A stretch of DNA of 37,089 nt. It comes from Candidatus Nezhaarchaeota archaeon WYZ-LMO8 (GTDB taxonomy: Archaea; Thermoproteota; Methanomethylicia; Nezhaarchaeales; WYZ-LMO8). The stretch covers positions 1 through 37,089 of the forward strand of contig QNVF01000009.1 of the NCBI GenBank assembly GCA_004347965.1. The letters run 5' to 3'. Position numbers and translations under genes: made by a program. Every line of letters starts with the position of its first letter. The stretch's first letter is position 1. Positions 28,762 through 37,089 of the stretch are shown here, piece after piece. The notes below the pieces were generated by a model. That model was not told the origin of the DNA. It ran no database searches and saw nothing but the letters and a program-made list of their open reading frames with translations.

Positions 28762-29289
28762 ATGGCCTTCATAGCATCAGCGCAGTACAGCGAAGAGTCT
28801 GTAGACGTATTATTGAGACTTATTGCTGTTCTTTCTGGTGAAGATGCTGTTAAGGTAGTTAAGGTGCTTTTAAACGAAAAAGAGGTGAGCGATGAAGTTT
28901 TAGCTGAAAAAACTGGGATGAGACTTAATCAGGTTAGGCGTATTCTGTACGACTTACTGGATAAGCACATAGTTACATATCGAAGAGAAGCTAGTGAGAG
29001 AGGAGGTTACCACCTCTACATATGGTCTTTGAATGGAGAGGGTCTAAGGAGGATGGTGAAGGAAAGGAAGGGGCACGTCCTCAACAGGTTGCGTGAAAGA
29101 CTCCTATACGAACAGCAAAACATGTTTTTTGTGTGCCCTAATGGTTGTAACGGGAGAGTGACCTTTGATAAAGCTATGGATCATCAGTTTAAGTGCTCTA
29201 AGTGTGGTGCCATTCTACAAAGCTTTGATAACTCTAAAATCATTGAGAAGTTGAGGTTAAGAATAGAGTCTCTGGAGAAAGATCCTTGA
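28762..29289 (+). CDS. tfe: Transcription factor E alpha subunit
   Basis: wHTH SDE.LAEKTG..LN.VRRILY.L, Y.W, Zn ribbon F.CPNGC...F..A....FKCSKCG..L...DN. Confidence 0.93.
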   Translation: MAFIASAQYSEESVDVLLRLIAVLSGEDAVKVVKVLLNEKEVSDEVLAEKTGMRLNQVRRILYDLLDKHIVTYRREASERGGYHLYIWSLNGEGLRRMVKERKGHVLNRLRERLLYEQQNMFFVCPNGCNGRVTFDKAMDHQFKCSKCGAILQSFDNSKIIEKLRLRIESLEKDP

Positions 29290-29394
29290 AGTTAGCATTG
29301 AATATATGTACTTTAAGCTTAAGGTGGTAAGATGATCAGTTAAAATACGTAAGGTTTATCTCGCCTTAAAGATGTAACGCAATTGTGGATTTTT

Positions 29395-31082
29395 ATGAAG
29401 TATATCTTCATTACGGGGGGTGTTTTATCAAGCGTAGGTAAGGGAGCAGTAACAGCTTCTATAGGCAAGATGCTCCAAGTCAGAGGTTTCTCAGTAACAG
29501 CAATAAAAATAGACCCATAGGCCTTATGGCCGGGTAAACATAAACGTTGATGCTGGAACAATGAACCCATAGGCTCTAGGCATACGCTTAGAGCCGGGCA
29601 TATATGCATGGTGAGGTCTTTGTAACAGAAGATGGTGGTGAGGTAGATCTTGATCTCGGTCATTATGAGCGCTTTCTCGATATAGAACTATCGAGGGACA
29701 ACAACATCACAACTGGTCAAGTGTACATGGCGGTGGTGGAGGCTGAGAGGAAGGGTAAGTACCTTGGCAAGTGTGTACAAATAATACCTCACGTAACTGA
29801 TGAAGTGAAGAGGAGGATACGATCCGTTGCTCAAAGAAGCAATGTAGATGTAACACTTGTGGAGTGTGGAGGTACGACAGGAGACATCGAAGGGCTTCCC
29901 TTCCTTGAAGCTATAAGGCAGATGAGGCTTGAGGAAGGCTTTTCAAACACGCTTTTCGTGCATGTTGCGTTAGTACCAATACTTGAAGTGACTGGAGAGT
30001 TCAAGACAAAGCCCCTTCAACATAGCGTGCAAGAGCTAAGGCGCATCGGTATACAGCCAGACATTATAGTGGCAAGGTGTAAACAGCAGCTTGATGAAGA
30101 TTCAAAAAAGAAGATAGCGCTTTATAGTAACGTCCCCGAGGAAGCGGTTTTCACATCTTACGACGTCGAATGCATATATGAACTGCCAATAGTACTAGAC
30201 GAACAGGGAATGGGCGACTACATATGTAAACGGTTAATGCTAAATGCTTCTAAAGCGAATTGGTCCTCATGGAGAGAGATAGTTAGAAGGCACAAGTTCT
30301 TTAGGTATGAAGTTGATGTCTGCATGTGTGGGAAGTACACAAAGTTAAAGGACTCCTACATAAGCATAATAGAAGCTCTAAAGCATGCAGGAGCTTTCCT
30401 TGAAACAAAGGTCAACATGATTTGGCTCGAAGCTACACAGCTTGAATGCGATAAGGGAATGCCTGAGGAGTATCAGAAGACTCTGAGCTATTGTGATGGC
30501 ATAGTGGTTCTACCAGGTTTCGGTGCACGAGGAGCTCAAGGAAAGATGACCGTCATCGAGTATGCTAGGAAGAACAAGATCCCGTTCTTGGGAATATGCT
30601 TTGGAATGCAATTAGCCGTTGTAGAGTTCGCAAGGAATGTGGTGGGTCTCAAAGATGCAAATACCACTGAGCTTGACCCTTCTACAAACCACCCAGTAGT
30701 AGACCTGCTGCCGGAGCAACACTATGTTAAGGAAATGGGAGGTACGATGAGACTGGGTGCTCAAGCTACTGTTCTTGAACCAGGGACGAAGGTCTATGAG
30801 CTCTATGGAAGACCTATAATATTTGAGAGACATAGACACAGGTATGAAGTAAACCCTGCTTACTGGTCATTGCTTCAGAGCTATGGTATGATTTTCTCAG
30901 GTTATAGCGTTGATAAGCGAAGAGTAGAATTCATAGAGCTCAAGGATCATCCATTTTTCATAGCTACTCAGGCACATCCAGAATTTAAGTCGAGACCTAA
31001 TAGACCGTCGCCTCTATACTACGGCTTCTTAAAGGCTTGTCTAGAGTACAAGCTAAAGAAGTCGATGGCCTCTAATAGCTAA
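29395..31082 (+). CDS. pyrG: CTP synthase, intron-split: join(29395..29518, 29538..29570, 29602..31082), 545 aa after splicing
   Basis: Exon 1 [17 protein letters not shown]...AIKIDP; exon 2 [11 protein letters not shown]; exon 3 [25 protein letters not shown]...GGTTGDIE...KTKP.QHS...GICFGMQ...ERHRHRYE...HPEF. Joined length is 1638 nt. The ORF track sees only 29604..31082. Confidence 0.94.
29519..29537 (+). other. 19-nt BHB-type intron 1 in pyrG mRNA (AGGCCUUAUGGCCGGGUAA)
   Basis: G-ACCC-AU|A-GGCC(UUAU)GGCC-GGGU-AA|A-C: perfect 4-bp helix ACCC/GGGU, two 3-nt bulges, 4-bp GC hairpin. Splicing gives GAC CCA UAC AUA AAC (D-P-Y-I-N). Confidence 0.9.
29571..29601 (+). other. 31-nt BHB-type intron 2 in pyrG mRNA (AGGCUCUAGGCAUACGCUUAGAGCCGGGCAU)
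   Basis: ACCC-AU|A-GGCUCUAGGC(AUAC)GCUUAGAGCC-GGGC-AU|A: 10-bp hairpin, central helix ACCC/GGGC with one A-C mismatch, AUA bulges. Splicing gives AAC CCA UAU AUG CAU (N-P-Y-M-H). Confidence 0.87.
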
Positions 31083-33583
31083 TACGAACCCTTGAGAGAA
31101 GAGTAAGCTCTCTCTATCCTGGTTATAAATCTTCTAGCTGCTTCCTCAGGGTTTGACGATCTTGTTATCGCTGAGCCAACAATTACTATCTTGCAACCTC
31201 TCTTAACTAGTTCATCCACGTGTTCGAGCCTTACACCACCTGCTACGGCTACTGGAACCTTTACGCTGTTCACTATTTCCTCTAAGAGCTCCATTTTCTT
31301 TGTCACATCTCTCTCCCTCATCTGCACACTTATACCCATATGGACGCAAATTATGTCGCATCCAAGTCTCTCTACTTCCTTTGCTCTAGATACGGGGTCC
31401 GGCACATTTATGAGGTCGCACATGATCTTGACGTTGTACTTTCGAGCAGCACCAACAGCGTCCTTGATAGTATAGTCATCAGTGGCGCCTAGCACTGTAA
31501 CTATGTCCGCTCCAGCTTCAGCAGCTAACTCAACTTCAAGCCAGCCAGTGTCAAACGTCTTTAAGTCGGCAACTATAGTAGCGTAGGGAAACCTTCTTCT
31601 AAACTCCCTTACTGCCTCTAAGCCAGCAGACTTTATGAGTGGTGTTCCAACTTCAAGAATCTCAGCTCCTCCTTTGTAGCATGCTTCAGCTATGCTTAGA
31701 CCATCCTTCAAGTATCTTTCATCTATCGCTACTTGAAGCTTAGGTCCTTTGTAAAGTGGTTCTAAGCCTAATTGCTGAAGTTTCTTGTCCATAGGTATTC
31801 CATTATAGTTCCAGCCTCTAATCATGTAGTAAGCGTCGAGCAGCCTCGTTAAATCAACTATTTCTCCTTTTGCAGCTCCTTCCTTCAATCCCTCGCTTAA
31901 GAACCTAGGAGGTAGAGTGTCGTGTGATCTATTGAACCCCTCCCTAACGTTAAACAGCCTTTCTAAGTTGTATATTCTCTCTCCTATCTTATAGAACTCT
32001 TCTTCATCAACGTAGAAACCTGTCGCCGTTGTTAATAGCCTTGCGTAATGCGTTGCCTCATAGGCTAATGTCGAGAATAAGGCGAGCATGGTGTACTTGC
32101 ACACCACTAAAGAGTCTATTACAGCTGAGACATCTTGCAATCTCTTAACGAGCTCGGCTTTACCTTCATAGGAGAGGGGGTCTATGTACCTTGGTATGCC
32201 CAGTATCTCACTCATCACTATGTAAGCTCTCAAGTGGCATCCCCCTCTATTGGATGTTGCGTAAGCCAAGGCCATGCCCTTTGCCCCTCGAGGATCGTAA
32301 GCCGGCAGCTCCAATCCTTTCACGTGAGCAGCTATACCCTCAGCACCTATCATCTTCGCTATTCGATCAACTCCCTCACTTGCAATTCTTCCTAGACCCC
32401 TCTTGCAGGCTGTGTCAACGATAAGCTTTAACAGTACGTCAGCATTACCAAAGCTTAGCTTTAAATTTACATCGCCAAGCCCTCTTAAAAGCCCCTTCTC
32501 ATAGCACTCCATTAAGAATCCTATAGTGTTTCCAATTGATATGGTGTCGAGACCTAGCTTGTTGCATAAGTCATTTGCTCGTGCTATGACGTTTATATCT
32601 GATATACCACAGTTAGGTCCCAAGGCCCATACGCTTTCATACTCAGGCCCTGAAGATACTACTTCCTCCTCTCCAACCTTGTATTTTATTGAGCGAGCGC
32701 AAGCTATCGGACATCCATAGCATGCGGTTCTTCTTACCAGCATGGTTTCAGTAATTCTCTCCCCACAAACCTCCTCTGCTTTATCGAAGAAACCTCGTGT
32801 AAAGTTATAGGATGGAAGAACTCCTGCCTTATTCATCAAGTGAACCAGAAACGCTGTGCCATAGCGTCCAAGGCTATCTCCAGTAATTGGGTTCCCTCTT
32901 AAGACCTCAAGTGTCTTCTTAACCTCTTCATTGAATGCTCTCGGGTTTGCAACCTTCACTTCACCGGTGCCCTTGACTGCTATGGCCTTTAACTTTTTAG
33001 AGCCCATGACTGCGCCCAAGCCGCCTCTACCAGCTGCTCTATGCTTATTGCTTATTATGCAAGCCATTCTAACCTGGTTCTCTCCAGCAGGACCTATGCA
33101 ACACACCTCGACCTTCTCAAGCCCCAACTCTCTTCTTATAGCATCCTCTGTAGCATCGGTTTCAAGTCCCCATATCTTGCTTGCATCTCGAATCTCAGCT
33201 TTACCGTCGTCGACCACCAAGTATACTGGGCTAGAGCTTCTACCTCTGATGATTATGCCGTCAAACCCAGCCTTCTTCAGTTCAGGTCCCCAGGATCCTC
33301 CACAGTTAGAGTCGAAGATCGTGTTAGTCAATGGAGACTTCGATGACACAACGAATCTACCTGATGCTGGAGCTCTAGTCCCTGTGAGCGGGCCGGTCAT
33401 AAATATTAGCACGTTATCCTCGCTCAGTGGATCAATACCCGGCTTTAAAGCGTCAAAGAGAAGCTTTGCTGAATACCCTCTACCGCCTATAAACTTCATT
33501 GCTACGTTCCAGTCGAGATCTACGACCGCTACGTCGCCTTTACTCAAGTCTACCTCTAGTATCCTGCCACTGTAACCACTCAA
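31079..33583 (-). CDS. Fusion: W/Mo aldehyde:ferredoxin oxidoreductase (aa ~1-613) + 3-hexulose-6-phosphate synthase-like TIM barrel (aa ~614-834)
   Basis: AOR motifs [70 protein letters not shown]. Then [51 protein letters not shown] (HPS/KGPDC family). Confidence 0.9.

Positions 33584-36129: not shown

Positions 36130-37089
<960 letters not shown>

Follow-up and report, generated by a model that had tools for sequence, protein, structure and literature searches.

We report here that the pyrG gene, which encodes cytidine triphosphate (CTP) synthase, is interrupted by two short inserts in Candidatus Nezhaarchaeota archaeon WYZ-LMO8. The gene lies on the + strand of a 37,089-nt stretch of DNA (the window; contig QNVF01000009.1, positions counted from its first letter), which is contig C78 of a 1.35-Mb, 78-contig, 93% complete genome. 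Both inserts are very probably archaeal pre-mRNA introns of the relaxed bulge-helix-bulge (BHB) type, cut by the tRNA splicing endonuclease and joined by RtcB to give a 545-aa CTP synthase. With its pair of introns, pyrG adds a host gene to an archaeal intron class that is already known. An earlier description of the window made from its letters alone (hereafter the sequence-only reading) had pointed out the inserts; this observation is confirmed, and the feature is real.

The start codon of pyrG occupies 29395-29397. Exon 1 (29395..29518) comprises 41 codons and the first base of a Tyr codon, contains the P-loop, ends in Asp-Pro-Tyr codons and matches positions 3-43 of the NCBIfam CTP synthase profile (534 positions). 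It is followed by intron 1 (29519..29537; 19 nt here, 19-27 nt among relatives), exon 2 (29538..29570; 33 nt, the same length in all 14 distinct two-intron variants described below) and intron 2 (29571..29601; 31 nt here, 30-33 nt among relatives). Exon 3 (29602..31082, through the stop codon at 31080-31082; open reading frame 29604..31082) covers profile positions 57-532, and the gap between the profile matches of exons 1 and 3 is filled by the 33-nt exon 2. The frame is interrupted twice, each time by a UAG right after a Pro codon: without splicing it stops after 41 aa, with intron 1 alone removed it stops after 52 aa, and removal of both introns in silico opens a frame of 545 aa. These stops bear out the sequence-only reading, according to which both introns must be removed to make CTP synthase. 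The spliced product aligns without gaps at both junctions with an intronless homologue (L029; 351/546 positions identical). The pyrG match of exon 3 is single in this genome.

The letters of the window also agree with what had been claimed about the shape of the inserts. Both follow ACCCAU, start with AGGC and end in GCC-GGGY-A-W, and the target heptamer ACCCAUA is the same at both sites, as is its codon phase. BHB motif 1 (29513..29538) has a central helix in which 29513-29516 (ACCC) pairs with 29532-29535 (GGGU), a 5' bulge at 29517-29519 that would be cut after 29518, a 3' bulge at 29536-29538 that would be cut after 29537, and an inner hairpin at 29520-29531 (GGCC against GGCC, 4-nt loop). 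BHB motif 2 (29565..29602) has a central helix of 29565-29568 (ACCC) against 29596-29599 (GGGC), bulges at 29569-29571 and 29600-29602 with predicted cuts after 29570 and 29601, and an inner hairpin at 29572-29595 with a 10-bp stem and a 4-nt loop. The previously noted difference between the hairpins (4 bp versus 10 bp) and the A-C mismatch in the central helix of intron 2 (ACCC against GGGC) are both present. In either motif, the last base of the 5' bulge AUA is the first base of the intron, and the last base of the 3' bulge is the first base of the next exon.

Both motifs were delimited from the fold, from a parse of the 14 variants and from pair counts. A 4-bp helix of ACCC with GGGY lies between 3-nt bulges (AUA on one side and ARA or AKA on the other) in both introns of 14/14 variants, and the inner helix measures 4-8 bp in intron 1 and 9-11 bp in intron 2. 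Centroid folds recover the central and inner helices of both motifs. The 131-nt pyrG stretch folds with z = -3.62, and 0/200 shuffles were as good; taken alone, intron 1 gives z = -2.33 (2/200 shuffles) and intron 2 gives z = -1.77 (8/200). At 19-33 nt, the pyrG introns are not of the kind that bears a homing endonuclease, and there was no long insert at these sites among the genomes searched. Split pyrG matches in five genomes (G171, G215, G252, G338, and G138), considered as long-intron ancestors, proved to be contig ends or partial paralogues.

The exon 3 protein was searched in 41 related genomes (the source genome included), 39 of which matched, and the upstream DNA was read at 30 loci. 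Both introns are present at the same two sites in 10/10 genomes of family f1 (our label), which belongs to the Nezhaarchaeales and spans four genera, and the exon 3 protein is 80-93% identical across this family. Families f2, f3, and f5 carry no pyrG insert. A wider set of loci was scored with a script that measures the spacing between four conserved pyrG peptide motifs. Among loci L001-L110, both introns were found in 16/110 (the ten family genomes plus six duplicate records), an intron in the P-loop in 13, an insert at the first site only in one (L098), and no excess at any interval in 59; the other 21 were unscored because an anchor motif differed, and by eye 19 of them are intronless and two have no N-terminus on the contig. 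The 80 loci scored in L111-L192 comprised nine with both introns, 66 with none, one with the P-loop intron, the L098 contig again, and three partial ones. The two-intron loci number 25 in all and reduce to 14 distinct variants, in which the intron lengths are mostly not multiples of three. All lineages with both introns have the short hairpin in intron 1 and the long one in intron 2. No genome or contig in these sets has intron 2 alone, and no member of family f1 has only one pyrG intron; each additional variant from metagenomes likewise carries the two.

Covariation among the 14 variants follows the proposed pairing. A structure of 23 pairs placed on the 14-row alignment shows standard pairs in 97.5% of 322 cells, and at most 52.8% are paired when the partner is slid by one to three columns. 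Both partners have changed in six of the 23 pairs, whereas 0/500 shuffles reached that number; the shuffle figure is not a probability because the 14 sequences are related, and the slid controls, which preserve this relatedness, fail as well. In the intron 1 hairpin, for example, 12 variants have G-C at the second pair and the other two have A-U, and the intron 2 hairpin has compensatory changes at four pairs. The pair adjoining the 3' bulge is A-U in 13/14 variants in intron 1 and in 12/14 in intron 2 (GGGU), the remainder having an A-C mismatch. Therefore, the mismatch in the window is a tolerated derived state. In our judgement, these comparative pairing data argue most strongly against BHB folds arising by chance.

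The exons are constrained as well. The heptamer ACCCAUA is invariant at both sites in 14/14 variants, while nearby third codon positions vary. Of 138 distinct intronless sequences, only 23 have it at the first site and only 15 at the second, and the Pro and Asp/Asn codons at these sites vary freely. The exon half of each motif, frozen at synonymous sites in intron-bearing pyrG and variable in intronless pyrG, is therefore held by RNA structure. A tree built from 73 rows of the exon 3 protein by maximum likelihood (a quick search, the careful one being unfinished, with support from the Shimodaira-Hasegawa-like approximate likelihood-ratio test) groups the two-intron rows in a single clade (support 100) and the P-loop rows in a second one (support 94).

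The genome encodes proteins fit to process these motifs. An endonuclease-family protein of 185 aa matches the catalytic C-terminal half of two-repeat endonuclease models, and a second one of 178 aa matches the N-terminal (structural) half and, weakly, beta-subunit models, the two genes lying on contigs C12 and C2; RtcB is also encoded (601 bits). Two separate halves fit the heterotetrameric type of endonuclease, which has been linked to relaxed BHB motifs and to cbf5 splicing (PMC10485636). Aragorn found 39 tRNA genes, 15 of which have an anticodon-loop intron; the genome is therefore rich in endonuclease substrates. The enzymes, the structure, its conservation and covariation, and the exact restoration of the frame are direct observations.

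We infer that the pyrG transcript is cleaved and ligated in the cell, and we propose the following steps. The exon ACCC would pair with GGGY near the 3' end of each intron, forming the 4-bp helix with a 3-nt bulge on each side, and the intron's own hairpin would serve as the inner helix. An (alpha-beta)2-type endonuclease would cut after the second base of each bulge. RtcB would then join the exons, so that the two split Tyr codons are rebuilt and the message encodes the 545-aa CTP synthase. An unspliced message would terminate at the UAG formed at each 5' junction.

Several points weigh against this reading. The strict hBHBh' form is absent, since the outer exon-exon helix has only 0-2 bp (alignment A1); the pyrG motifs are therefore of the relaxed form, and their cleavage would depend on an enzyme of broad specificity. 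In this genome, the 4-bp helix of intron 2 also contains the A-C mismatch, and all genomes used were assembled from metagenomes. RNA data were mapped on 29250-30000 from one metatranscriptome available as contigs (X1) and three available as raw reads (X2-X4). X2 and X3 gave 0 reads and X4 gave one, too few for a splicing test. In X1, the sole metatranscriptome holding the organism, a 99%-identical contig ends at 29514 and a 96%-identical contig starts at 29599, and nothing from this organism covers either intron, exon 2 or a junction. An apparent joint in X1 from 29568 to 29607, with seven other letters between, was rejected as splicing: the contig diverges again at 29641 and reads like another organism's intronless pyrG. 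The inserts might stay in the RNA, as parts of a pseudogene, through an assembly error, or with translational bypassing or frameshifting, and it is in keeping with this that no RNA read shows the spliced form (X1-X4, in which the junctions are not covered). We consider it highly unlikely. The same interruptions occur in 14 independently assembled variants whose remaining protein is conserved at the identity given above, and the gene is the sole pyrG copy in a genome that is 93% complete. The UAG with a following hairpin may resemble the bypass of T4 gene 60, but there is no matching landing codon at the 3' ends of the introns. Moreover, the Tyr codons are physically split, so that no hop or frameshift can decode them, and both bypassing and frameshifting were rejected for this reason.

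Introns that we assign to the same BHB class are found in pyrG of other lineages. The P-loop intron is 21-28 nt long, lies in the Gly-Lys-Gly codons, and occurs in the sister families f4, f7, and f8 (upstream of the pyrG match at L012, L014, L016, L017, L020, L021, L022, L024, L025, and L026). It forms a clean BHB with, in order, GGGG, AA/A, the hairpin, CCCY, and AR/A (slashes mark the splice sites). All ten members of these families that were read have it, and none has an insert at the Pro-Tyr sites. In the Bathyarchaeia, genome G403 (L098/L191) carries, at the Asp-Pro-Tyr site alone, a BHB insert of 21 nt with the same splice register as intron 1 and a hairpin that opens with GGC and closes with GCC. 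Genome G433 (L232) likewise has an insert at this site alone; it is 30 nt long, its helix register is displaced by one base, and its 10-bp hairpin is unrelated. Both genomes are placed inside the Bathyarchaeia clade (support 96) of the pyrG tree, far from family f1. The Asp-Pro-Tyr codons were occupied independently at least twice and probably three times, and such repeated occupation favours a hot spot or a target-specific process over pure chance.

The remaining 29 of 30 relatives of G403 have no insert where the region is readable. A screen of the first 75 residues in the Bathyarchaeia (401 genomes, 359 matched) gave no further frame-breaking insert; it is blind to in-frame inserts, and G403 itself scored in the normal range, lengths divisible by three being invisible. 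Ten genomes scored weaker than 1e-29, one of which is G433. Seven of the other nine were rejected as intron carriers: five (G468, G591, G657, G639, and G540) as contig ends, G549 as a run of N, and G465 as a 1-nt frameshift; the remaining two are G588 and G525. In G465 (L243, contig C11), one extra base after the second Gly-Lys motif shifts the pyrG frame, which is either a sequencing error or a true frameshift. In a sample of the phylum (401 genomes, 386 matched), the best 150 of about 400 matches start, outside the window's class, at query residue 1-3 and have no internal stops, except for one contig end; this was G160, which was rejected as an intron carrier.

pyrG is not the only interrupted protein gene in this genome. 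We scanned the genome for BHB motifs that join two open frames when removed and then searched the halves against protein families. The scan gave 41,079 raw motifs; removal restored an open frame for 1,017 of them, and a stricter filter left 101. From these, 20 were chosen by eye, and 16 of the 20 were tested with Pfam halves. The resulting loci (L198-L206) place BHB introns in at least five other genes. A 22-nt intron lies in cbf5 (C1:76635-76656), where the downstream half matches from TruB_N profile position 17. For four other genes, the two halves match adjoining stretches of the NCBIfam profile: aIF2-gamma (32 nt, C77:23751-23782; profile 2-96, then 97-353), aIF5B (33 nt, C77:21331-21363; 4-44, then 45-303), uS5 (29 nt, C72:142-170; 21-66, then 67-208), and an MtnA-like isomerase (27 nt, C35:6124-6150; 2-155, then 157-336). 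Two candidates are weaker, having a downstream half that matches and an upstream half that does not: HypD (22 nt, C11:16109-16130; downstream half from profile position 43) and an ArsP/SaoE-type permease (19 nt, C16:15571-15589; downstream half from 55-65). All of these introns and candidates lie in conserved motifs. Nine of the 16 tested candidates were rejected as adjacent genes (on C8, C63, C4, C3 twice, C14, C56, C10, and C7), and three more of the 20 (C77:13529, C42, and C7:6766) were put down as adjacent genes too, solely on the basis of their flanking peptides.

In 10/10 genomes of family f1, aIF2-gamma is interrupted (open frame of 306-381 aa; query L205:1333-2109). Within the window's class (62 genomes, including Methanomethylicia and Culexmicrobium), the other genomes have it at full length (413-510 aa), with an interruption in 0/51 of those with a match. 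By this open-frame proxy, the aIF2-gamma interruption has the same distribution as the pyrG intron pair, which suggests that mRNA introns were gained in a burst along the stem branch of family f1.

We next consider the age and origin of the pair. The sequence-only reading had proposed that one intron may have hopped to an identical target nearby and took this as a sign of recent mobility, citing the identical heptamers and the similar intron ends; on this view one intron jumped only lately and would still be mobile. The survey of orthologues that it called for gives another picture: both introns are fixed in the ten family genomes from four genera and in all 14 variants, no family f1 relative has a single pyrG intron or the first site filled and the second empty, and there is no further copy of either intron in the genome. 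A pattern for the shared ends had five matches in the genome, and only the two in pyrG are introns; BLAST with short words, run on both introns alone and together with their flanks, gave no match below E = 0.6 other than the introns themselves. Recent mobility is not supported because a one-intron relative and another genomic copy are both lacking, and a recent hop is in our view barely credible. The comparison instead indicates that the pyrG introns are old and fixed. The accompanying proposal of sequence-specific siting is reasonable. Two explanations of the pair are live, and a local copy is one of them. It holds that, in the family's stem lineage, an ancient intragenic copy, in either direction, entered the second ACCCAUA site at a distance of 33 nt and that the hairpins then diverged. 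Such a copy is possible because both introns share AGGC...GCCGGGY, and we regard it as plausible, without going so far as to call it probable; to a like degree, intron 2 may have begun as a local copy of intron 1. The copy could have arisen at the RNA level, by reverse splicing followed by reverse transcription and recombination, or at the DNA level, by template switching on the 6-nt and 4-nt microhomologies flanking both sites; the DNA route would account for a local copy no less well than reverse splicing. The heptamer and the codon phase are the same at both sites, the identity extends to ACCCAU/ACAU (the slash marks the 5' splice site) in 7/14 variants, and both introns start with AGGC and end in GCCGGGY-A. 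A hairpin opening with GGC is found in none of six other mRNA intron candidates of the genome (the five confirmed ones and HypD) and in none of the ten P-loop introns, and a copy of intron 1 would be workable only where ACCC is on offer. A precedent may be found in Thermoproteales, where tRNA introns are described as having moved from site to site (Fujishima 2010, cited in PMC4090602). However, beyond the positions forced by the BHB and the exons (the first A, GGGY, and the A of the 3' bulge), introns 1 and 2 share only three outer base pairs, GGC with GCC, and BLAST shows no similarity between them. Their hairpin lengths are distinct and stable in 14 variants, the family holds no one-intron intermediate, and the unrelated intron at the same Asp-Pro-Tyr site in G433 implies that this site can attract introns without copying.

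The other live explanation is that the two introns were gained independently at a hot spot, where conserved Pro-Tyr codons, like some other motifs, are favoured and the likeness of the introns is convergence imposed by a shared exon context. We give this serious weight, just short of calling it probable. On the pyrG tree, introns fill the Asp-Pro-Tyr site at three separate points (family f1, G403 with 21 nt, and G433 with 30 nt), the P-loop site is occupied in 10/10 sequenced members of f4, f7, and f8, and the confinement of the aIF2-gamma intron to family f1, by the open-frame proxy, fits a burst of gains on one branch. On the other hand, a hot spot leaves unexplained the GGC opening and GCC closing common to introns 1 and 2 and the G403 intron. 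It also sits badly with the heptamer itself, which occurs 175 times on both strands of the genome (165 expected) and is occupied only at the two pyrG sites. More tentatively, and on balance doubtfully, pyrG introns 1 and 2 and the G403 intron could represent one lineage of mini-introns (AGGC...GCCGGGK-AA) that inserts where an mRNA offers ACCCAUA, accompanied by a stem-lineage burst into pyrG twice, aIF2-gamma, aIF5B, uS5, and MtnA. If true, this would be the first case of a BHB intron spreading among protein genes and would provide a natural system for studying the mechanism of intron gain in archaea.

The pyrG introns can be compared with three known systems. In its accessible text, a review of 2023 names only cbf5 and HVO_1309 as archaeal mRNA substrates of the tRNA splicing endonuclease and expects more; it describes the relaxed BHB form for cbf5 (PMC10485636). 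The cbf5 intron of Sulfolobales and Desulfurococcales (Watanabe 2002; Yoshinari 2006; Yokobori 2009, PMC2738675) is likewise a short relaxed BHB intron that interrupts a protein gene. It is linked to the (alpha-beta)2 endonuclease, splits a codon in a conserved motif and is subject to lineage-specific gain and loss; putative introns have also been predicted in other protein genes (PMC2738675). In contrast to cbf5, pyrG encodes a metabolic enzyme, has two introns 33 nt apart at identical heptamers, and in other lineages has further independent introns, both at the same site and elsewhere in the gene. For cbf5, splicing has been demonstrated experimentally, whereas for pyrG we deduce it. The tRNA introns of Thermoproteales resemble the pyrG pair in being BHB introns at new positions where a BHB can form, so that the need for a BHB may define the targets; the mechanism of their transposition is described as unknown (Fujishima 2010, cited in PMC4090602). 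Those copies are numerous and highly similar, whereas the pyrG pair shares only 4 + 8 terminal bases and has no other copy. HVO_1309 of Haloferax volcanii (PMC7714728; PMC10485636) is also a substrate of the splicing endonuclease in an mRNA; the enzyme there is of the alpha2 type, and in pyrG it is the coding frame itself that needs excision. A search of full-text literature, in which most subscription journals were outside coverage, found no report of BHB introns in pyrG or CTP synthase or of introns in Nezhaarchaeota.

Very few archaeal protein genes are believed to depend on RNA splicing; pyrG joins them, and at least four further housekeeping genes of the same genome would be added as hosts of BHB introns. 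Gene callers will give truncated or split genes in Nezhaarchaeales, in relatives within Methanomethylicia, and in some Bathyarchaeia. The shared Asp-Pro-Tyr site, the twin heptamers, and the frozen synonymous sites open the mechanism of intron gain to comparative and biochemical tests.

Two neighbouring features of the window were also recorded. An open frame of 834 aa on the - strand (31079-33583) is convergent on the 3' end of pyrG. We take its N-terminal part to resemble aldehyde:ferredoxin oxidoreductase and its C-terminal ~200 aa to be a separate barrel domain, so that the frame is possibly a fusion. A G+C-rich stretch at about 36200-36940 on the - strand, which presumably resembles part of a ribosomal RNA gene at the end of the window, gave many chance BHB-like matches in the genome scan.

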